DNA from: Candidatus Jacksonbacteria bacterium RIFCSPLOWO2_02_FULL_44_20
Lineage (GTDB): Bacteria > Patescibacteriota > Patescibacteriia > UBA9629
Direction of reading: 5' to 3'
DNA length: 64,000 bases
Assembly: GCA_001818155.1 (NCBI GenBank)
Contig: MHJU01000036.1
Location: forward strand, 3,615-67,614
Numbering within the stretch: position 1 is the stretch's first letter; the number at the start of each line of letters is the position of its first letter. The notes under the pieces were generated by a model, which was not told the DNA's origin, made no database searches, and saw only the letters and a program-made list of their open reading frames with translations. Of this stretch, positions 988 through 62,200 are shown piece by piece. The translations under genes and the position numbers were made by a program.

Positions 988-1061
988 GCGGGTATCGTAT
1001 AATGGTAATACCACAGCTTTCCAAGCTGTTGCCGGGGGTTCGATTCCCCCTACCCGCTCCA
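988..1061 (+). tRNA. tRNA-Gly(TCC)
   Basis: Cloverleaf with acceptor gcgggta/tacccgc, anticodon stem acagc/gctgt, loop tttccaa (anticodon TCC), T-loop ttcgatt, and an encoded CCA. Confidence 0.85.
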
Positions 1062-1086: not shown

Positions 1087-1115
1087 TTGACACTAATAGC
1101 TCATCAAACTATACT
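1087..1115 (+). promoter_or_regulatory. Sigma70-like promoter: TTGACA, 17-nt spacer, TATACT. It ends about 9 nt before the hicB ATG, so the transcript is probably leaderless.
   Basis: ttgaca at 1087-1092 and tatact at 1110-1115 with an exact 17-nt spacer; the ATG is at 1125. Confidence 0.4.
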
Positions 1116-1124
1116 TCATTTATT

Positions 1125-1391
1125 ATGAACACATATACTTTCCGAGTCATTATTGAACCAGACGAAAATAATACATTTCACGGTTATGTGCCTCTGCTTC
1201 CAGGTTGTCACACGTGGGGGGAGACGATTGAGGAAACAAAAATAAACGCTCGCGAAGCGATTCTCTGCCATATACAAGGGCTGATAATGGATAATGAACC
1301 AGTCCCGCAGGAAACAGAAATAATTGAGTTAATCCAGACAATCTCTGATGCTGAATGGGTAAAAGAGCAACCCGTTCTCATCCCTGCATAG
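1125..1391 (+). CDS. hicB: HicB-family antitoxin (UPF0150-like)
   Basis: MNTYTFRVIIEPDENNTFHGYVPLLPGCHTWGETIEETKINAREAIL matches the HicB/UPF0150 pattern. I trimmed the track ORF 1002..1391 because its N-terminus overlaps tRNA-Gly. Confidence 0.7.
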   Translation: MNTYTFRVIIEPDENNTFHGYVPLLPGCHTWGETIEETKINAREAILCHIQGLIMDNEPVPQETEIIELIQTISDAEWVKEQPVLIPA

Positions 1392-1449
1392 TGCATAGAG
1401 TGAAAAGATATAAAAAATGGAAAGTAGTAAATATCTTTTTTAGTTTTTC

Positions 1450-1478
1450 TTGACATCTATTTTATTTTACTTTAGGAT
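1450..1478 (+). promoter_or_regulatory. Sigma70-like promoter: TTGACA, 17-nt spacer, TAGGAT, immediately upstream of ORF 1485, probably leaderless.
   Basis: ttgaca at 1450-1455 and taggat at 1473-1478; the ATG is at 1485. Confidence 0.3.
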
Positions 1479-1484
1479 AGATGC

Positions 1485-1883
1485 ATGATAAACTTTGATC
1501 CACAAAAACTTAATCAAAGACTCCAAGAGATAAAAGATTTGGAAAAGAAAAAAGCTGAAATAGAAGCAAGATTAGCTTTAATTACTGGGTTAATTCAAGA
1601 GACCGACCCTTTACCTAAAGGCTTTGACTATAGGGAAACTATTCTAAAAATTTTTGAAGACGCTTCTGATATGGACTTAAATATTGATGATGTTACAAAA
1701 CAAATCACAATAAAATATAACTTTCGTGTAGATAGAAAAGCTGTAGCAAATCGAATTAATTATCTTACGGATCGCGATAAAAAACTTCAACGTATTAAAG
1801 GTAAAAGAGGATTTTACAGACTTTTTGAGAAAGAAAGGGAGCAAGAAGAGATAAATGAATATCAAATCAAACAGGCTATGTAA
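1485..1883 (+). CDS. Hypothetical protein of 132 aa, AT-rich, probably coiled-coil.
   Basis: Complete ORF with GC near 32 percent, against roughly 45-50 percent in its neighbours. It has its own promoter and a downstream hairpin terminator. I recognise no family. Confidence 0.5.
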   Translation: MINFDPQKLNQRLQEIKDLEKKKAEIEARLALITGLIQETDPLPKGFDYRETILKIFEDASDMDLNIDDVTKQITIKYNFRVDRKAVANRINYLTDRDKKLQRIKGKRGFYRLFEKEREQEEINEYQIKQAM

Positions 1884-1910
1884 AACCGCTACTTAAGCGG
1901 TCTTTTTGTT
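1884..1910 (+). terminator. Rho-independent terminator
   Basis: aaaaccgctacttaagcggtcttttt: stem accgct/agcggt followed by a T-run. Confidence 0.55.
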
Positions 1911-1940
1911 GCTTGTTATAATCCGATATTAACTATCGTA

Positions 1941-2165
1941 ATGACAAAATTTCCAGCCGTGAAATCGCAAAAATTAGTCAAAGCCCTGCAAAAAATGGGC
2001 TTTTTTGGATACCATCGGGTTGGAAGTCATGTTCAATTCAAGCATCTTGACGGAAGAAGGACAACTGTCCCAGTACATTCGGGTAAAGATATCCCACGCG
2101 GCACTTTGCGCGCTGTTCTCAAACAAATTAACATCTCACCTGAAGAATTTCGCGATGTCTTATGA
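1941..2165 (+). CDS. hicA: HicA-family mRNA interferase toxin
   Basis: GSHVQFKHLDGRRTTVPVHSGKDIPRGTLRAVLKQ matches the HicA/YcfA signature (GSH..F.H..G...T.P.H...dl..gtl..IlkQ). An extended -10 (tgtTATAAT, 1914-1922) lies upstream. Confidence 0.75.
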   Translation: MTKFPAVKSQKLVKALQKMGFFGYHRVGSHVQFKHLDGRRTTVPVHSGKDIPRGTLRAVLKQINISPEEFRDVL

Positions 2166-3901
2166 CACGCGCCAGAGTGATCGTAAATGGAGGGACTATG
2201 AAAAAAAAATCTACATCAGGAACAGTGCCAAACGCGCGCAACATGCGCGTCGCGTATTTTTGCATGGAGATCGGCTTACGCGCCGAGATTCCGACGTATG
2301 CCGGGGGGTTGGGAATTCTTTCCGGGGACGTACTACGAAGTTCCGCGGACTTGGAACTTGGCGTTATCGGCATTACGCTTCTTTATAAAAAGGGGTATTT
2401 CCGACAACGAATTAACGAAGAAGGCAATCAAACAGAGGAGGAGGTTTCATGGAATCCGGAGGACTATCTTGAGTTATTGCCGCAAAAAATTACTGTAACT
2501 ATTGAAGGACGCGAAGTTTTGGTGCAGGCTTGGCTTTATCGCCTTCAAGGCGTAACCGGACACATTAACCCGGTTATTTTTCTTGATACGGATCTTTCTG
2601 AAAACAGATCGGATGATCGCGCGATCACGCATTGTCTCTACGGCGGCGACTATACTTACAGACTTGCCCAAGAAATTGTACTTGGGATAGGAGGAGTTAG
2701 GATGTTGGAGGCGCTTTCTTGCACGCATATTCATAAGTATCACATGAACGAGGGGCACTCCGCGCTCCTAACGCTTGAATTGTACAGGCGCTTTGAACTG
2801 TACACTAATCCGCTCGCGCGCGTGCGGCGCCGTTGCGTGTTTACAACTCATACACCAGTTGCATCGGGTCACGATCAGTTCTCCCGCGATTTTGTTCTAC
2901 GTATAGCAGGAAGCGCGATTCCAGAGGCAATTAAAAATGAAGTGTTTACAGATAATGCGCTCAATATGACGCGATTAGGCTTGCAGATGAGCGAATACTT
3001 TAACGGCGTTGCAAAAAAACACGGCGAAATTTCGCGGCAGATGTTTCCGGGCTATCAGATAGAGTCCATCACAAACGGCATGCACGCCGGATTTTGGGCA
3101 TCAGCGGCATTTTGCAAACTCTTTGACAAATATCTTCCGGGCTGGGCCGCTGATCCTTATAGTTTGCGCTATGTGTTAAGCATTCCTGGGCAGGAGTTAT
3201 GGAGAGCGCACATGGACTCAAAGACGAATTTGATCGGGCATGTTAATAAAGCTCATAATGCGCAAATGGACGCAGAGGTGTTTACAATCGGTTTTGCGCG
3301 CCGGGCAACCGCGTATAAAAGGGGCGTGATGCTTTTTTCCGATACCGAATGGTTGAAGCAGATCGCACGAAAATTCCGCGGCATACAAATTATTTACGCA
3401 GGAAGCGCTCATCCAAAAGATTACGAGGGTAAGGCCTTAATCAAACAGGTAATTCAAAAAATGCGCGAAGTTAAAGATGCGATTCGCGTCTGTTATATTG
3501 AAAATTACGACATTAATGTCGCAAAATTATTGGTCGGGGGCGTTGACCTGTGGTTAAACACCCCGATACGTCCGCAGGAGGCGTCGGGAACTTCCGGCAT
3601 GAAAGCCGCGCTAAACGGCATTCCGCATTTTTCTGTGCTTGACGGCTGGTGGCTTGAGGGGCACATTGAAAACGTTACCGGCTGGAGTATAGGCCCGCAC
3701 CCGGATCAACTACAGGGAGATGTTGATAAAGAAGATTTTGAGGACATGTATAATAAACTGGAGTACATTATTCTTCCGATTTTTTACAATCAGCGCGACG
3801 AATGGATTCGCATCATGCGCCACTCAATTGCAATTAATGGCTCGTTTTTCAACACGCATCGCATGGTTCAGCAATATGTATTGAATGCGTATTTTCAATA
3901 A
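2162..3901 (+). CDS. glgP: Alpha-glucan (glycogen/maltodextrin) phosphorylase, GT35-like.
   Basis: The N-terminus VAYFCMEIGLRAEIPTYAGGLGILSGDVLRSSADLELGVIGITLLYKKGYFRQ is typical of the archaeal/bacterial alpha-glucan phosphorylase family. The start could instead be at 2198 or 2243; the 2162 start overlaps the hicA stop. Confidence 0.8.
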   Translation: MTRARVIVNGGTMKKKSTSGTVPNARNMRVAYFCMEIGLRAEIPTYAGGLGILSGDVLRSSADLELGVIGITLLYKKGYFRQRINEEGNQTEEEVSWNPEDYLELLPQKITVTIEGREVLVQAWLYRLQGVTGHINPVIFLDTDLSENRSDDRAITHCLYGGDYTYRLAQEIVLGIGGVRMLEALSCTHIHKYHMNEGHSALLTLELYRRFELYTNPLARVRRRCVFTTHTPVASGHDQFSRDFVLRIAGSAIPEAIKNEVFTDNALNMTRLGLQMSEYFNGVAKKHGEISRQMFPGYQIESITNGMHAGFWASAAFCKLFDKYLPGWAADPYSLRYVLSIPGQELWRAHMDSKTNLIGHVNKAHNAQMDAEVFTIGFARRATAYKRGVMLFSDTEWLKQIARKFRGIQIIYAGSAHPKDYEGKALIKQVIQKMREVKDAIRVCYIENYDINVAKLLVGGVDLWLNTPIRPQEASGTSGMKAALNGIPHFSVLDGWWLEGHIENVTGWSIGPHPDQLQGDVDKEDFEDMYNKLEYIILPIFYNQRDEWIRIMRHSIAINGSFFNTHRMVQQYVLNAYFQ

Positions 3902-5547: not shown

Positions 5548-5623
5548 GGGCATATAGCTCAGCGGTTAGAGCACCACTCTTATAAAGTGGGGGTCGATGG
5601 TTCAAATCCATCTATGCCCACCA
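5548..5623 (+). tRNA. tRNA-Ile with a UAU anticodon (tRNA-Ile2-like body)
   Basis: Acceptor gggcata/tatgccc, anticodon stem ccact/agtgg, loop cttataa giving anticodon TAT. GTTAGAGCA in the D-arm and GGTTCAAATCC in the T-arm resemble ileX-type tRNAs. Confidence 0.7.
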
Positions 5624-38099: not shown

Positions 38100-39623
38100 T
38101 CACTCCCCAACACGAAACCTATACTGCAGAGCTTCCGAGATGTGTTCGGTTTGAATATCCTGAACGCCTGCGAGATCAGCAATCGTGCGGGCGACTTTGA
38201 GAATCTTAAAATATGACCGCGGCGAAAGCGAAAAACGCGACATCGCCGCCTCAAGCAATCGTTCGCCATCCGCCGGAACGCGGCAAAACTCTCCGACCTC
38301 GCGGCTTCCCATACTGGAGTTCACAGCCGAGATTCGCGAAGGAAATCGTTCGCGCTGAATATCGCGCGCGCTTTCAATCCGCTCCAGTATAATTGCCGAC
38401 CTCTCGCCGTCATCAGTGGACGATATGTGCTTAAAAGCTACGCGAGGAACGTCAACTTGAAGATCAATGCGGTCAAGAAGCGGCCCGGAAACGCGAGATT
38501 GATATGAGCGAATAGCATTTTGCGAGCATGTACAATCTTTTTCCGGATCTCTGTAAAATCCGCAAGGGCATGGATTTTGCGCGGCAAGCAGTGTAAACCG
38601 AGCCGGGAACACGGCACGCGCCTCTGCCCGCGAAATCGTTATGAATCCATCCTCAAGCGGCTGGCGCAGATTTTCCAAAACCGCGCGCGGGAACTCTGGA
38701 AACTCATCCAAAAACAACACGCCATGATGGGCAAGTGAAATTTCTCCCGGACGCGGTATTGCTCCGCCCCCGACAAGAGAGACTCCCGAGGACGTGTGGT
38801 GCGGCGCGCGAAATGGGCGCGTGGAAATAATCGCGCGATCTTTTGGAATCATACCCGCAATTGAATAAATTTTGGTAACCTCCACAATCTCCTCATGGGT
38901 CATGCGCGGAAGAATAGTTGTGAATGTCCGCGCAAGAAGAGTTTTTCCGGCGCCCGGGGGGCCTGACATCAACACATTATGCCCTCCGGCGGACGCAATC
39001 TCAAGCGCGCGCTTTGCATGGTTTTGCCCTTTGATGAAAGCAAAATCACACTCCTGATCTCCATGTTCTCCCTTGTATTCAATCGGCACGCATGGAATAG
39101 CAACTATCTTTTCTCCGCCTGAAAGATGAAAAAACAGCTGTTTCAAATTTTTTACAGGATAAATTTCAAGCCCGGAAACCAACGCGGCTTCCTTTTTGTC
39201 TGTGTCCGGAACATAAATTCGTTTGATGCCGTGTTCGCGGGCAAAGAGCGCGGAAGGAAGCACGCCGGACGTGTGGCGGACAGTTCCGTCAAGCGCAAGT
39301 TCGCCGATAAACAGAGATTCAGAAACTTCAAGCGGATGATCCAAAGCCTGTAAAAGCCCGACCGCCATTGGAAGATCAAATGATGCGCCTTCTTTCTTAA
39401 TATCTGCCGGCGCCAAATTTACAACAATCACTCTTTGCCAAGGAAAATCAATGTCGGAATTTTTAATCGCCGAACGAATCCGCTCCTTTGATTCTCGCAC
39501 AGAGGCGTCCGGAAGCCCCACAATACTAAAACGAGGTAGATTCCCTCGCGAGATATCTACCTCAACATCAACAAGATGCGCATCCATCCCCAGAGTAAGC
39601 GCGGAGTGAATTTTTGAGAGCAT
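38100..39623 (-). CDS. comM: YifB/ComM-family Mg-chelatase-like AAA+ ATPase
   Basis: N-terminal Lon-like domain (ALTLGMDAHLVDVEVDISRGNLPRFSIVGLPDASVRESKERIRSAIKNS), Walker A GPPGAGKT, and a C-terminal Mg_chelatase domain. Confidence 0.85.
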   Translation of the reverse strand: MLSKIHSALTLGMDAHLVDVEVDISRGNLPRFSIVGLPDASVRESKERIRSAIKNSDIDFPWQRVIVVNLAPADIKKEGASFDLPMAVGLLQALDHPLEVSESLFIGELALDGTVRHTSGVLPSALFAREHGIKRIYVPDTDKKEAALVSGLEIYPVKNLKQLFFHLSGGEKIVAIPCVPIEYKGEHGDQECDFAFIKGQNHAKRALEIASAGGHNVLMSGPPGAGKTLLARTFTTILPRMTHEEIVEVTKIYSIAGMIPKDRAIISTRPFRAPHHTSSGVSLVGGGAIPRPGEISLAHHGVLFLDEFPEFPRAVLENLRQPLEDGFITISRAEARAVFPARFTLLAAQNPCPCGFYRDPEKDCTCSQNAIRSYQSRVSGPLLDRIDLQVDVPRVAFKHISSTDDGERSAIILERIESARDIQRERFPSRISAVNSSMGSREVGEFCRVPADGERLLEAAMSRFSLSPRSYFKILKVARTIADLAGVQDIQTEHISEALQYRFRVGE

Positions 39624-39668: not shown

Positions 39669-39974
39669 TTAAGTATCTGCAACCACTCCTCCGGCAAACG
39701 CCATGCTCTCCTTTTTATATTTCACGACGTTATCCAGCACAATCATTTTTTCCTCGCTTATAGATACCACCTGTTTGTGGTGAATAATAAACCCATCGGA
39801 AAATATGCCGCCTTCCTGCCTACCGAGCAGGCTGGCAAGAAGAGTTGGTTTGATGTTATATGATCGAACTTCCTGTATATCTATATCTATATTAAACGAC
39901 TGCACGCGTCCAAGATAGGTTCCGTTTTGGGTTTCAACTTTAAGACCAATCAATTTTTCAGAGTTGATAAGCAT
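39669..39974 (-). CDS. PRC-barrel domain protein
   Basis: KLIGLKVETQNGTYLGRVQSFNID..., a PRC-barrel-like beta-rich small protein. Confidence 0.4.
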   Translation of the reverse strand: MLINSEKLIGLKVETQNGTYLGRVQSFNIDIDIQEVRSYNIKPTLLASLLGRQEGGIFSDGFIIHHKQVVSISEEKMIVLDNVVKYKKESMAFAGGVVADT

Positions 39975-41083
39975 TATTGTCTGATTGGCATTACTATGTA
40001 GATAAACTCCTCTCCCTCGTTTTCTTCCAAAGGTTTCAAAAGAACCGGCGCAGATGGGGATGACGCGAGTAGCGCTATTTCCGGCGCGTCAATTGCTGTC
40101 AACCCATCAAGGAGATACCGATAGTCAAAAGCGATTGTGAGCTCTCCCTCTCCTTCAATATGCGGATAAAGTTCCGTTTGTTCTTCGCCAATTATTGTTC
40201 TTGAAGCAATTTTCATACCCTTTCCTGATACGATTGTCAGCGTGACGTTATTTGATCCGACTGACGCAAAAAGTCCGGAGATCCGCACTGCATTGATGAA
40301 TTCTTCACGGTTTATAATGCATTTTATTGTGTGAGACGTGGGGATAATCTGTTGATAATTCGGATAATTTCCGTCAACAAGCCTGGAGACAATCTCATTT
40401 GATCCATAAACAATGAGCGCTTGGTTTTCAGAATGGTAAAGAATAACTTTTTCTTCCGTAGCTTCAAGAGATCGTAGAAATTCTTTTGCGGTTTTCAAAG
40501 GAAGAATGAACTGGGCTGTGAACAAAGCCGGGTCTACGAGAGGAGCTTTTTTTTCAGCAAGCCTGTAACTGTCAGTTCCTACAAGCGTGATTGTTTTATC
40601 ATTGATTGAAACATATACGCCGTGAAGTTCAGGCCTTGTGTCATCAAAAGAAACTGCCGGCAGAATTTGTGAAAGAGCTTTTTTGAAAATCGGAAGAGAA
40701 ATTACGCATTCTTTATCTTTTTGGATCCCTGGAATTACCGGAAAATCATCGCTTGATAAACCGTTTATCTTGGTTTTATGAGCTCCGCCTAAAACAGTGA
40801 CGTTCTTTCCGTCGCTTTGGACTTCAACTTTATCGCGAGGGAGAAGGCTCACAAAACTTGAAAGAAGTTTTGCCTCAACTGTAATAGATCCTTCTTTATC
40901 AACCTTTCCTCTGACAATTGATGTAATTCCAACCTCAAGATCAGTCGCTTTTAGATTGATCGCCCCGTCTTTTGCTTCAATAAGAATATTTTTAAGAATC
41001 GGAAGCGCTGTTGTGTTGCCGCTTATTCCCTGAACGGCCGCTAAACCCTTATGAAGATTTTCTTGTGTGCATGTGAATTTCAT
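39974..41083 (-). CDS. dnaN: DNA polymerase III subunit beta (sliding clamp)
   Basis: MKFTCTQENLHKGLAAVQGISGNTTALPILKNILIEAKDGAINLKATDLEVGI, three-domain length. Confidence 0.85.
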   Translation of the reverse strand: MKFTCTQENLHKGLAAVQGISGNTTALPILKNILIEAKDGAINLKATDLEVGITSIVRGKVDKEGSITVEAKLLSSFVSLLPRDKVEVQSDGKNVTVLGGAHKTKINGLSSDDFPVIPGIQKDKECVISLPIFKKALSQILPAVSFDDTRPELHGVYVSINDKTITLVGTDSYRLAEKKAPLVDPALFTAQFILPLKTAKEFLRSLEATEEKVILYHSENQALIVYGSNEIVSRLVDGNYPNYQQIIPTSHTIKCIINREEFINAVRISGLFASVGSNNVTLTIVSGKGMKIASRTIIGEEQTELYPHIEGEGELTIAFDYRYLLDGLTAIDAPEIALLASSPSAPVLLKPLEENEGEEFIYIVMPIRQ

Positions 41084-41251
41084 ATTACGTATATATTTAA
41101 TTAAATATATTATATTCTTCCTCTTATGGCTCGCGTTTTTGTTGAAAAGTCGTTATTTCCTTAAAATAACACTGTTATTTCTTTGAAAACATGTTGATAT
41201 TTGTGTTAGGTTTAAGTGAATATCTCGTGGAAAATTTATTCTCACAACATA

Positions 41252-42583: not shown

Positions 42584-42668
42584 ATACGAGTATTATAACA
42601 GAGTTTTTTCATATGGGGCAAGTATTTGATAAAGTACGCGACTTTAGGGTATACTATAAACGTTTTGT

Positions 42669-47675: not shown

Positions 47676-47823
47676 CAATGTCGCTTAATACAGTATACTG
47701 GATTCCAGTCGTCTACAAAGACGGCTATCTTATTTACTAGTAGAAATAGGTTCTTTGAAAATTGCATATAATCAATACAGCTATCTAAAAGTGATAGTCC
47801 TCAATTTGAAAGTTTTAGTATTT

Positions 47824-49365
<1,542 letters not shown>

Positions 49366-49529
49366 TAAGGAGAAATTCTGTCGACTGTGTTGCTTTGCGA
49401 CACAGGAGGACTATCACTATTAGATGGCTATATTATCAAAATAAAATTCCGTTATGGCGGGATTTTTTGTTTTCACGCAGGGGTTGCGGGGTTCAAGTTT
49501 TTTTGATATTGTCTGTATGCTATTTCGTT

Positions 49530-49605
49530 GCCGACTTAGCTCAGCGGCTAGAGCAACTGTTTTGTAAACAGTAGGTCCGGGGTTCAAATCCCCGAGTCGG
49601 CTCCA
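49530..49605 (+). tRNA. tRNA-Thr(TGT)
   Basis: gccgacttagctcag..., anticodon stem actgt/acagt, loop tttgtaa, encoded CCA. Very similar to E. coli thrU. Confidence 0.8.
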
Positions 49606-49617
49606 GAGGCATAAGAG

Positions 49618-49694
49618 GGGCGCGTAGCTCAGCTGGTTAGAGCACGTCACTGATAATGACGGGGTCGGAAGTTCAAATCTTCCCGCGCCCACCA
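49618..49694 (+). tRNA. tRNA-Ile(GAT)
   Basis: gggcgcgtagctcagctggttagagca, anticodon stem cgtca/tgacg, loop ctgataa, encoded CCA. Confidence 0.85.
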
Positions 49695-49705
49695 TAAAAC
49701 CGTTT

Positions 49706-50449
49706 ATGTTCAAAAATAAAGTAGCCCTCATCACCGGCGCATCGCGCGGCATCGGGCGAGCGTGCGCGCTGAAGTTTGGAAGCGAGGGAGCAAAGGTTGT
49801 GGTGAATTATCATGACTCGCTGACGCAAGCACAGGAGGTGGTGCGGGAGATAGAACATGGTGGAGGAGAGGCAGTTGCTGTCCAAGGAGATGTTTCAAAG
49901 CGACAGGACTGTGAACAACTTGTGGAAAAAACAGTAAAAAAGTTTGGCAGAATTGATATTCTTGTTAATAATGCAGGTATTCACCGCGAATCGCCGATTG
50001 ATATGATCAACGAAGAAGCATGGGATGACGTGATGGCGTGCAATGTGAAGGGAATCTATATGCTGTCGGTATTAGCTGGAAATCAGATGAAAAAACAGGG
50101 CAAAGGGGTAATTGTAAACATTGGCTCGGTTGCGGGAATTTTTCCACGCGATGTTAATACAGCTTATGCGGTATCAAAAGGCGCTGTATGGTCGCTGACC
50201 CGCGCGTTAGCTATATCGCTTGCGCCGGAAATCCGTGTAAACGCGGTTGCGCCTGGTGTTATAGAAACAGATATGTCGCCACTCTGCGATCCTGCAAAAC
50301 GCGAGAAAGTAGCACGATCAAATTTGCGTCGCCGTATTGGACAGCCGGAAGACATTGCGCGCATCGTCGCCTTTCTCGCCTCCGACGAAGCTGATTGGAT
50401 TACCGGGCAGACTGTTGTGGCAGATGGCGGTTCGTCGCTTGTTGTATAA
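49706..50449 (+). CDS. SDR-family oxidoreductase, FabG-like 3-oxoacyl-ACP reductase.
   Basis: TGASRGIGRA, NNAG, and an S...Y...K catalytic triad (YAVSKGA); ends PGVIETDM. Confidence 0.75.
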   Translation: MFKNKVALITGASRGIGRACALKFGSEGAKVVVNYHDSLTQAQEVVREIEHGGGEAVAVQGDVSKRQDCEQLVEKTVKKFGRIDILVNNAGIHRESPIDMINEEAWDDVMACNVKGIYMLSVLAGNQMKKQGKGVIVNIGSVAGIFPRDVNTAYAVSKGAVWSLTRALAISLAPEIRVNAVAPGVIETDMSPLCDPAKREKVARSNLRRRIGQPEDIARIVAFLASDEADWITGQTVVADGGSSLVV

Positions 50450-50480
50450 ATGATCAAGAATAGAGACAAAATAAAACCAC

Positions 50481-50555
50481 GCCGAGGTAGCTCAGTGGTA
50501 GAGCACATGACTGAAAATCATGGTGTCGGCAGTTCGATCCTGCCCCTCGGCACCA
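50481..50555 (+). tRNA. tRNA-Phe(GAA)
   Basis: gccgaggtagctcagtggtagagca, anticodon stem catga/tcatg, loop ctgaaaa, encoded CCA. Confidence 0.85.
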
Positions 50556-59200: not shown

Positions 59201-62200
59201 CAAGCACAATTGGTTACAAGACGCCCACGACCACGCGAATGTAAACGCCGGAGATACGATCACAACTTACACGGTAAACGAGGTTTCAGACACGCTCGGC
59301 TCAACCCTTACCGACAACGGGCCCTATCTTACTCTTGACGCCGCAACCTCAACAACCATTGCCGCGGCAGACGATTACATCGGCTTTTATATGTACATGA
59401 CCTCTGGAACAAACAGAGGAAAGTATTATCTGATAATTGATTCCACGACAGGTACCCCCGACACAATCTCCATCGCCGCGACCGACGGCACCTCGCTTAA
59501 CACGACCGGCTTCAACCCCGGCGATGGGTTTACGATTGTGGATCGGGTGTATGCGAGGGATTCTGGCGAGTCAACAAACTGTACCGGAACCGAGAATTTA
59601 TGTCTTTCAAAAGCAGGCAACTCAAACGGCACTGCGCCTATTACATGGACTACTTCTGGCGCTGTGGTTATTGATTCTGCCGGAGTGCGAAGTTACAGCA
59701 TAGATATTGCCGGCGCGGACTACAATATAGTAAACGGTTTTACGGTTATCGGCGGACTTTTAGACGGCATTCGGCTTACGAATGTAAACAACAGCAGGTA
59801 TGCTAATTTAACCGTTGCGAGAAATACTGGAATGGGCATTAACGACGGCGCGGGCAATCAAGATAATTTATTTGAAACAAACACGGTATTTTCAAACACA
59901 AGCCATGGAATAGGCGGTATCAATCAATCTTTTGTAAACGGCAATACGGTGTACGGAAACTCTGGACGGGGGATTGATGTAAGTGGGACGAGCGCGGTGT
60001 ATAATAATAATCTTTACGCAAACGCGGATAGCGTATTTATGGCCGGCGCGGACAACACGATTCGCGGAAATAAGATTTTGCGAGACACGCAAAGCGGAAT
60101 AGTTTTTTCAGGGAGCGCAACATCAAGCGCTATTACGAATAACCTTTTGCTTGCTAATACCACAAACGGAATTGCCGCAAGTTCGTATTCCGGAAGCAAT
60201 AATGCTATTCGCAATAATATCATCACCAATACCGGTACGGGCATCAATCTATCCCTTCACGCGACCGATGTTTCTAATTTTAATTATTTTTACAGTAATA
60301 CAACGAATGTTGTCGGCGGTGAAGGGGCGCAATCACTTCCCGCAAGCGGCGGGGCTGGAGGAACTGATCCGAATTATAGTTTTGATGTTTCCGCGACAAA
60401 TGTTACCGCGGGGTCAACCGGTGAGATAGATTTAACAGGCACTCAAAACTGGACTGCCAATCAATGGGCAGGGTATGGTTTAACTTTTATTGACGGCACG
60501 AGCGTGTGCGATTCAGATGTCAAAAATAAATGGTTTGGCATTACCGCAAACGGAGCCGAATGGATTGCGTACTCGCCAACGCCTGCTGATGCTTCCACCA
60601 TTACTAATTGCGCGGCAAAGATTACTAATTTTGCGCTTCCTTCCGTCTCTACCACCACGCCTTTGGGGGGCGGGGCAAACCATGCGGGCACAGCGGCGAA
60701 AGTGAATATGGGGACGCGGCTTGAGTATGTTGAGAACAGCGACGGCACGCGAAATAACGGAATTCAAAACGCCAATGACGCGGGCGCGACAGGCGCGGGA
60801 GACACCTTAACCGTGTACGCGGTTGACGAAGTAACAAGCGGCACGGTTTTTTCCGCCGCGGACAGCGGGCCTTATGTTACCCTTACGCTCTCAACAGACA
60901 GCATCGCCGCAAACGATGACTATATCGGCATGTATATGTATATGACGAGCGGCACAAATGCGAGCAAGTACTATCTGATCATTGATTCGGCAACAGTTGC
61001 AGGACCAGCCGACACAATCGCAATTAACACTTCTGCAACTACCGGCTTTGCCGCAAGCGATACGTTTAATATAATAGACCGCGTGTACAGCACAACCGGC
61101 TATACGTCTGGCGCCACAACAGCAAACGCGCGTTTCACCAAAGACGGCTCATCTGGAAGCCCAATCACATGGAATGCGGTTGCAAGTAACACAGTTTTGA
61201 TAGACGCATCAGGGAAGACATACGGTTTTTACGGCGATACAGACGGTACAAACGGGCTAAAATATAACAATTTTCAGACCGCCGGCACATTCACTTTCTT
61301 AAACGTCTCAAACGGCGCGAACCTGTATCAAGGCGGATTTGGGTTTAATACCACGAGCGTTGTTCACGATCACATTAACTGGGGAGGCGCAACTGACGCA
61401 AGCACTATTTTTACAGGCCAGTATATTTCAAAAATAATTGATATGACGCAGGCGGATCCGGTGTATGGAAATTTGGTGTGGACGCAGAACGCAACAGCCG
61501 GCACGAGCGACGTTGTTATGCATACAAGAAGTACGGACACCGCAAACGGAAGCGACATCGGCACAAAAACGTTTGTAGGTCCTGACGGAACCGCAAACAC
61601 TTCGTATTCCACCGAAACCGGCGAGGCCATCGCGGATGCGCATAACACGCATCAATATTTCCAGTATCGCGCCACACTCACCACAACCTCAAGCAATACG
61701 CTTCCGGAACTCACCTCGACAAGCGTGAGCCAGGAAGCAGAATTAACATCCTCTCCTTTTAACACGCAGGCCGCGGAAACATTGTTTAACGATGTTGTCT
61801 GGACAGAATCCGACGGCGCAAGCGGCACCATTCCATCCGGCACAGACGTTCGCATTCAGGTTCGTAGCGCGCCGGATTCAAGCGGGGCCCCTGGCACATG
61901 GACATCGTGGTGCGGGCCAAACGACGGAGTCTCGGGAAGCTGTACTTCAACAACTTACTTTACGGACTCAACCGGCGCGACCGAGGCACTTGACGATATT
62001 TTGATTGACGCGACAAGCGATCAGTGGATTCAGTATAAAATTTTATTTATCCAGCCCTCAACAAATAAGCCATATTTGAATGATATTACCTTGCAATACG
62101 TTGTAAACACCGCTCCAACGGTCAGTGTTACGTCCGCCTCGCAAGGATCGGACGGCGTCGTAACGGTTGCGTATTCGCTTTCTGACTCGGAAGAGCAGGG

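Follow-up and report, generated by a model that had tools for sequence, protein, structure and literature searches.

Introduction

HicBA modules of Class 2 are toxin-antitoxin (TA) systems where the antitoxin gene precedes the toxin gene (hicB-hicA), HicB comprises 63-103 codons and the antitoxin is devoid of a DNA-binding domain (Gerdes, 2024, mBio, PMC10865869). The hic genes of Class 1 and Class 2 are normally closely linked or overlapping, and the regulation of the modules of both classes is an open question (Gerdes, 2024; PMC10865869). Here we describe a module of this kind in a stretch of 64,000 nucleotides (nt) from Candidatus Jacksonbacteria bacterium RIFCSPLOWO2_02_FULL_44_20 (contig MHJU01000036.1), which in its full length is referred to as the window. 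The module resembles Class 2 hicBA in the order of the genes, in a small HicB without a DNA-binding domain and in a HicA of 74 amino acids (aa) that contains Gly-Ser-His. Whereas the described modules are linked or overlapping and translationally coupled, hicB and hicA of the window are 549 nt apart and separated by a gene of 132 aa, a predicted terminator and a separate putative promoter, a layout that is absent from the 14 HicA contexts described (PMC10865869). We consider it likely that a foreign AT-rich insert of 549 bp at the hicB/hicA junction has split a Class 2 hicBA module, and the locus as a whole represents a known kind of system in an unusual, probably accidental configuration.

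TA systems with three components are also known, for example the toxin-antitoxin-chaperone system HigBA-SecB, omega-epsilon-zeta and paaR-paaA-parE, and systems of the omega-epsilon-zeta and paaR2 kind have a DNA-binding regulator that is a protein of its own. Like such systems (for the chaperone type see the TAC, i.e., toxin-antitoxin-chaperone, systems cited in PMC5105189), the window contains three adjacent small genes, one of which might be a dedicated regulator or helper. In three-component systems, however, the third gene is conserved and co-transcribed with the pair, whereas the middle gene of the window is absent from related pairs, foreign in its composition and apparently terminated on its own.

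The hicB and hicA Genes

Profile searches assign both partners of the pair as the original prediction had named them. On the plus strand, hicB (1125..1391, 88 aa) matches HicB_lk_antitox of Pfam (PF15919, E = 1.7e-14) and the HicB-like PHROG 497 (E = 2.6e-14), and hicA (1941..2165, 74 aa) matches HicA_toxin (PF07927, E = 1.8e-20) over profile positions 2-58 of 58 as well as PHROG 353, which is annotated as "toxin" (E = 1.1e-16). The HicB match spans positions 1-74 of the 123 positions in the PF15919 profile and thus only a partial RNase-H-like domain, and the Pfam scan of the window HicB gave no HTH, RHH or Phd match that would indicate a DNA-binding domain. HicA consists of a single dsRBD-type domain. 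All 27 invariant columns are kept by HicB in an alignment with nine relatives, and the same is true for HicA with 23 of 23 columns in a nine-sequence alignment that includes the window HicA, among them G28, S29 and H30; a catalytic role is ascribed to the Gly-Ser-His of HicA. Both genes have a GC content of 0.43, which is typical of the genome, and neither of them looks degraded. With the antitoxin gene in first position, a HicB of 88 aa and no DNA-binding domain, the pair corresponds to Class 2, but the adjacency within one operon that characterizes HicAB systems is not found, as the distance from the hicB stop to the hicA start is taken up by a further gene with its putative terminator and a putative promoter.

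Exact look-ups of the proteins revealed that the gene order IF2, tRNA-Gly, hicB, 132-aa open reading frame (ORF), hicA, glgP, patatin and translin is common to the contigs of seven or more assemblies, of which one is labelled as a groundwater metagenome. Over positions 901-2300 of the window these strain-level contigs are 100% identical, with the exception of a run of N in GCA_001818205.1 and a deletion of 25 nt at 2169-2193 in GCA_001000815.1 (L006/L011), which is located between hicA and glgP and takes out the GGAGG in front of the ATG at 2198. The split arrangement is fixed in one groundwater population.

Spacing of hicB and hicA in Related Modules

The main evidence for an insertion comes from the closest non-identical homologues of HicB and HicA and their genomic contexts, which yielded five independent relatives. 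The original prediction had raised the question of whether hicB and hicA are contiguous elsewhere, and they are: in all five relatives hicB is directly followed by hicA without the middle gene, and the spacing ranges from -8 to +7 nt. In detail, the gap is 4 nt in L101/L102 (70% identity for HicB and 61% for HicA), 1 nt in L103-L105 (62 and 65%) and 7 nt in L106/L107 (61 and 68%), whereas both genes overlap by 8 nt in L109, which encodes the HicB homologue P0066 (66 and 70%), and by 1 nt on the contig of P0068 (HicB 67%, HicA of 74 aa), where the overlap was read from the coordinates. This spacing, together with the published description of the hic genes as linked (PMC10865869), indicates that the gap of 549 nt in the window is the derived state.

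The closest relatives of the pair are Patescibacteria pairs of the same type, and P0066/L109 and P0068, which are near for both proteins, share the window type with a long C-terminal tail of HicB and a HicA of 74 aa. As the similarities of HicB and HicA are congruent, both window genes originate from one module. This bears on the possibility that hicB and hicA stem from two different TA modules and were joined around the middle gene by a deletion or rearrangement. Such a chimeric origin would suit two genes that lie 549 nt apart and seem to be separately promoted, but it is very unlikely, since the nearest relatives are the same for both proteins (L109 in particular) and share the described subtype, and since a further relative of the locus, L108 (see below), has inherited the ends of both genes together with glgP.

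Composition and Borders of the Inserted Segment

The inserted segment (1392..1940, plus strand, 549 bp) is present as a single copy in the window and differs clearly in composition from its surroundings. The GC content of the middle ORF (1485..1883) is 0.303 compared with 0.43 for both hic genes, which bears out that an AT-rich ORF is located between them, and the GC content at third codon positions (GC3) is 0.211 compared with 0.430 ± 0.043 (minimum 0.339) in the 27 long ORFs of the window. Thus, the middle gene is a compositional outlier by 5 standard deviations (SD), and a GC content of 0.31 or less is reached in only 0.4% of all segments of 399 nt. The intergenic parts of the insert that flank the ORF have GC contents of 0.24 and 0.35.

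There are no indications that the segment is a mobile or miniature element of its own, as it has neither terminal inverted repeats nor a target-site duplication nor multiple copies, and matches to other loci are confined to its coding part. A tandem duplication of 7 nt (TGCATAG TGCATAG, 1385-1398) straddles the hicB stop codon and the left edge of the insert and has no counterpart at the right edge. The start of hicA lies in the context TAATG and thereby resembles the stop/start overlap inferred for the P0068 contig. As default explanation for the route of insertion we assume illegitimate recombination.

Predicted Transcription Signals and a Possible Course of Events

All signals that had been proposed for the locus are present in the sequence, namely the TTGACA-17-TATACT promoter of hicB, the near-consensus promoter of the middle gene, the hairpin terminator and the extended -10 element in front of hicA. 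The predicted hicB promoter (1087..1115, plus strand) has 11 of 12 consensus matches and its -10 hexamer ends 9 nt before the ATG, so that a near-leaderless mRNA is predicted. For the middle gene, the predicted promoter TTGACA-17-TAGGAT (1450..1478, plus strand; 10 of 12 matches) ends 6 nt before the ATG and a leaderless mRNA is to be expected. Three homologues of the middle gene share this geometry with a -10 that ends 6 nt ahead of the ATG, and in two of them (L096 and L001) the promoter is also of the TTGACA type. In the whole window, 34 sites agree with the promoter consensus at 10 or more of 12 positions, which is about twice the number in shuffled sequences (17 ± 5). In several further genes the ATG comes 4-9 nt after a -10 hexamer, which suggests that leaderless starts are usual in this genome. 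At 38976-39004 and 42592-42621 on the minus strand and at 61048-61075 and 61410-61438 on the plus strand, promoter-like sites of this quality (10 or more of 12 matches) have a -10 that ends 4-8 nt before the start of a long ORF.

Downstream of the middle gene, a putative intrinsic terminator (1885..1910, plus strand) is formed by a hairpin at 1885-1901 with a stem of 6 bp, which contains 4 G-C pairs, and a loop of 5 nt, followed by CTTTTTGTTG. The hairpin has a folding energy of -8.4 kcal/mol (z = -2.3) and is predicted to shield hicA from transcription that arrives from upstream. The sole promoter-like element in front of hicA is the extended -10 element TGTTATAAT (1914..1922, plus strand), which was read from the sequence and is located 18 nt before the hicA ATG; it has no -35 hexamer and was therefore missed by the two-hexamer scan. 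No Shine-Dalgarno sequence is present between this element and the ATG. An AT-rich hairpin after hicB was also considered as terminator and rejected, as it is no better than shuffled sequence, and read-through from hicB into the middle gene is therefore plausible. The two-hexamer scan also detected no promoter-like site between hicA and glgP, so that a common transcript of both genes is plausible and probable.

The promoter of the middle gene is covered by a dyad, CATCTAT-N16-ATAGATG (1454..1483, unstranded), that was also seen as a hairpin on folding. The dyad is unique in the 64-kb window, with no copy at the promoters of hicB or hicA or anywhere else, and speculatively it could serve as an auto-operator.

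Taken as a whole, these features would fit the following course of events. The ancestral hicBA would have been a compact and translationally coupled bicistron, which the foreign AT-rich segment 1392-1940 would have entered exactly at the hicB/hicA junction. The insert would represent a complete transcription unit with a sigma-70-type promoter, the gene of 132 aa and an intrinsic terminator, followed by the extended -10 element. In the present state, the near-consensus promoter would drive hicB, transcription would run on into the middle gene, which would in addition have its own promoter, and the majority of the transcripts would end at the terminator at 1885-1910. Hence hicA, and probably also glgP, would be left with a weak extended -10 element and a short leader that lacks a Shine-Dalgarno sequence. 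In this way, the toxin would be decoupled from the antitoxin in transcription as well as in translation, and an excess of antitoxin and a low toxin output would be expected. As the antitoxin gene comes first, a polar insertion would lower the toxin and not the antitoxin, so that the cell would tolerate the insertion, which could then reach fixation.

The Middle Gene and Its Family

The middle gene (1485..1883, plus strand) encodes a protein of 132 aa that belongs to an uncharacterized family and has a model with a coiled coil and a winged helix. The profile searches that had been suggested with the original prediction found no match for this protein in Pfam, PHROGs or NCBIfam, and PADLOC gave only a weak match to GajB (13.6 bits, E = 0.0048). 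A search of 5.8 billion clusters identified four relatives with identities of 99, 61, 47 and 44%, and an exhaustive profile search of 1.84 billion proteins identified 61 representative proteins at E ≤ 1e-3, nearly all of which have a length of 105-150 aa. An exact look-up of the cluster representative P0001 gave no match. Among the five closest sequences 38 columns are invariant, and the motifs of the family are P-x-P-x-GFDY in the linker, LNIDDV, R-x-NYL-x-D and G-K-R-G-x-Y-x-L.

An AlphaFold2 model (pLDDT 82.8) comprises a long helix at the N-terminus (residues 6-37), a linker, a canonical winged helix and a C-terminal helix. The winged helix spans residues 49-113, with helices at 49-59, 67-78 and 84-96 and strands at 101-103 and 110-113, and shows the three-helix bundle and the C-terminal beta-hairpin wing that define this fold. 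Conserved Arg, Asn and Tyr residues are located in helix 3 and a conserved Lys-Arg-Gly in the wing. The conserved basic residues of helix 3 and of the wing point to DNA binding, and judged from the model the protein is probably a dimeric DNA binder.

These data also speak to the simplest alternative, according to which the ORF of 132 aa is a chance reading frame in an AT-rich spacer. The very low GC content and the lack of Pfam, NCBIfam and PHROGs matches would be expected in that case. However, homologues with 37-61% identity share the motifs, the length and the architecture of the protein, a confident fold is predicted from just five sequences, and the placement of the promoter is conserved. 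A chance ORF is thus effectively refuted, and the middle ORF is a real gene of a rare, unnamed family.

At the level of the fold, the protein is similar to the winged-helix DNA-binding domains of Fur/PerR, PadR, ArsR, MarR and the globular domain of linker histones, with no match at the sequence level, and a sequence profile search against the Protein Data Bank (PDB) found no solved structure, only coiled-coil noise and a weak match to the MCM4 winged helix. The UniRef name of the protein is "HTH HARE-type domain-containing protein". Nevertheless, the Pfam HARE-HTH profile (PF05066) does not match the middle protein at E ≤ 1 and only one of 32 family members at E = 0.02, and the model does not contain the extra helix that is said to mark HARE-HTH domains (PMC11037411). 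With hhalign, nothing aligned to an N-terminal sequence of the RpoE delta protein of B. subtilis, which is an uncertain query. A similarity to HARE-HTH is seen in the neighborhood, as two homologues of the middle gene are located beside DNA methyltransferase or restriction genes, and such an association is reported for HARE-HTH domains by Aravind and Iyer (2012), at least in the form in which that work is cited in PMC11037411. Two features are particular to the family, namely its coiled coil at the N-terminus and the P-x-P-x-GFDY linker.

In its layout, the protein furthermore resembles xenogeneic silencers. H-NS, Lsr2, MvaT and Rok combine an N-terminal helical oligomerization element and a short linker with a C-terminal DNA-binding domain, which in Rok is a winged helix. 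Silencers and the middle protein are alike in the size of about 130 aa, in the order of the domains and in a gene located on horizontally acquired DNA. The DNA-binding domain of Rok is found among the Foldseek matches to the model at rank 42, where the E-values of the Foldseek matches are weak (1.6e-3 or higher). The likeness is restricted to architecture, without a sequence relationship.

Genomic Contexts of the Homologues

If the middle gene were a genuine part of the TA module, its homologues should be accompanied by hic genes. Neither hicA nor hicB was present in any of the five recovered homologue contexts (L098, L003, L001, L096/L097 and L002), the last of which is too short to show the context. 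On the 510-kb contig L098 the homologue is divergently oriented beside a type III restriction-modification pair (Mod with N6_N4_Mtase, Res with ResIII), and in L003 it directly follows a gene that at its C-terminus shares 62-66% identity with annotated site-specific DNA methyltransferases. In L001 the genes of a large serine recombinase and of a DUF3631-like protein are located nearby, and in L096/L097 the homologue is placed between a MazG-like gene on one side and tRNA-Ser, tRNA-Glu and an IS1595 transposase on the other. The neighbors hence point to restriction modification and mobile DNA and not to TA systems. No match to the middle gene was found in IMG/VR, a phage collection or a plasmid collection. 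The broad family alignment (A2) contained no conserved peptide stretch that could be used for a search, and the narrower one (A3) led to three usable metagenome loci and to none in IMG/VR. The rare family seems to move as a single gene in Patescibacteria-like contigs, and because the homologues share the promoter-to-ATG geometry, the middle gene probably travels as a self-contained, leaderless unit.

In the light of these contexts we weighed a tripartite module, in which the winged-helix protein is a functional third component, for example the regulator that a HicB without a DNA-binding domain lacks, and represses hicA, itself or both. This idea is attractive in so far as the HicB match ends at profile position 74 of 123, the regulation of Class 1 and Class 2 modules is open (Gerdes, 2024; PMC10865869), the winged helix carries the conserved residues in helix 3 and the wing, and all three ORFs are intact and identically arranged across the strain-level contigs. 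However, the third gene is missing in five of five related hicBA pairs and hicAB in five of five homologue contexts, the middle gene is the compositional outlier described above with a promoter and terminator of its own, and the only dyad, at 1454-1483, is not repeated near the promoters of hicB or hicA. We therefore regard a tripartite module as unlikely. Of the two alternatives that had originally been left side by side, an insertion into a HicAB module is well supported, whereas a third component of an atypical three-gene module gains no support. Most likely, the function of the middle gene is independent of HicBA, for example that of a small autoregulated DNA-binding protein. Little credence is likewise given to the more far-reaching proposal that the protein was domesticated as the missing regulator of HicB (HicB-wH-HicA, with wH for winged helix), or that the family represents new small DNA binders of mobile elements in Patescibacteria, which are silencer-like or modification-sensing and associated with restriction modification. 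A helix of the middle protein that might mimic HicB was considered separately (residues 27-45 compared with HicB 44-62, 9 of 19 residues) and rejected, as the profile-profile probability is 0.5%.

The tRNA-Gly and glgP Neighborhood

The left neighbor of hicB is a tRNA-Gly gene with the anticodon TCC (988..1061, plus strand; ARAGORN and Rfam), which had been regarded as a classic integration site. No role of this kind could be demonstrated, since the tRNA 3' 25-mer has no second copy in the 64 kb when up to 3 mismatches are allowed and no integrase is found among the neighboring genes. On the right side follows glgP (2198..3901, plus strand; Pfam Phosphorylase), which encodes a glycogen/glucan phosphorylase and begins either with the ATG at 2198, in front of which GGAGGG is found, or with the one at 2243. 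The proposed overlap of the hicA stop with the glgP start (ATGA at 2162) turned out to be an artefact of choosing the longest ORF. Between 2162 and 2198 the reading frame is not maintained, as L108 has a 1-nt indel there and GCA_001000815.1 the 25-nt deletion, and homologues of glgP align only from residue 22-30 on, which places the start at 2198 or later. A search of 185,579 species genomes showed that the closest relatives of glgP are found in DPANN archaea (Nanoarchaeota and Woesearchaeota, L016-L019) with 61-65% identity and not in bacteria, which suggests that glgP reached the Jacksonbacteria genome by inter-domain transfer. A syntenic tRNA-Gly/glgP junction could not be recovered via the glgP homologues in these genomes.

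More informative is L108 (JGI Ga0209417_1069718), which is about 90% identical and aligns to window positions 1107-1308 and then again from 2130 onward. The deletion corresponds to window positions 1309-2129 and has fused the remainders of both genes in frame into a hicB'-'hicA ORF of 73 aa (L108 1339-1560), which is devoid of the hicB 3' end, the middle gene and most of hicA and is located directly before the same glgP. On the left, where the window has tRNA-Gly, L108 contains a zinc-finger, IS-like ORF of 287 aa without a Pfam match and no tRNA. This remnant shows that the TA module is dispensable. It also shows that the linkage of hicA and glgP is older than the linkage to tRNA-Gly, and that the cassette can be explained without the tRNA.

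A different scenario starts from the tRNA gene and assumes that hicB, the middle gene, hicA and possibly glgP came together as one island by site-specific integration at the tRNA 3' end. The cassette begins 26 nt past tRNA-Gly, the archaeal relatives of glgP with up to 65% identity suggest that the neighborhood was acquired horizontally, and TA genes are often found in islands (PMC10865869). In addition to the missing 25-mer repeat and integrase, the genome-typical GC content of hicB and hicA, unlike that of the middle gene, and the left flank of L108 with its IS-like ORF in place of tRNA-Gly argue against a common arrival, which moreover would leave the split itself unexplained. Thus, we consider a tRNA-targeted island to be quite improbable and prefer the insertion of a foreign segment into an existing hicBA pair.

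Two further observations were made at the 5' end of glgP. Window positions 2198-2296 and L108 1580-1689 are 100% identical, in contrast to an identity of only about 90% in the adjacent hicB part. The ATG at 2243 is enclosed by a GC-rich hairpin with a T-run (2232-2250). Either a regulatory structure or a tract of recent recombination might account for this.

Evaluation and Significance

Several points weigh against an insertion as described here. Only short chance matches were found in the search for inverted or direct repeats or a target-site duplication that bracket 1392-1940, and there is no recombinase to account for the entry of the segment. Furthermore, an uninterrupted hicBA at this exact locus was not found in a close relative, so that the assumed pre-insertion state is derived from more distant relatives with 61-70% protein identity, and L108 is silent on whether its ancestor had the insert. 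Three intact ORFs in a fixed arrangement would also fit a functional three-gene unit, and a HicB without a DNA-binding domain next to an inserted protein that is modelled with one may leave room for co-option. Finally, the promoters, the leaderless starts and the terminator were predicted solely from matches to consensus sequences.

The insertion of a foreign unit into hicBA does not change the understanding of HicAB systems, and most likely we are dealing with an accident of evolution that has reached fixation in a single groundwater population. It may nevertheless be of interest as a natural case in which a type II TA operon would have outlived the loss of both co-transcription and translational coupling. 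As the antitoxin-first order would make a polar insertion harmless, the case bears on TA stoichiometry as a constraint on operon evolution. In addition, the locus draws attention to an unnamed family with a coiled coil and a winged helix and with conserved predicted leaderless promoters, which may merit a study of its own. This family seems to ride beside restriction-modification and recombinase genes in genomes of the candidate phyla radiation, where very few regulators have been characterized.

Other Features of the Window

A gene of 192 aa at 4900-5478 matches the Translin family (PF01997), which is mainly eukaryotic and archaeal and thus unusual in a bacterium. At 5548-5623 a tRNA-Ile with the anticodon TAT (UAU) adjoins tRNA-Val(GAC), and the window has a further tRNA-Ile(GAT) at 49618-49694. 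The region 47823-50555 comprises a complete 16S rRNA gene and, following it, the genes for tRNA-Thr, tRNA-Ile and tRNA-Phe. The remaining 14 kb contain no 23S rRNA, and linkage of the rRNA genes thus seems to be lacking. Apart from the insert, one spot of the window is strongly AT-rich (41084-41251, GC about 0.30). This spot is intergenic and located upstream of a dnaN-like gene on the minus strand (39974-41083), where it could be an origin or a promoter region.

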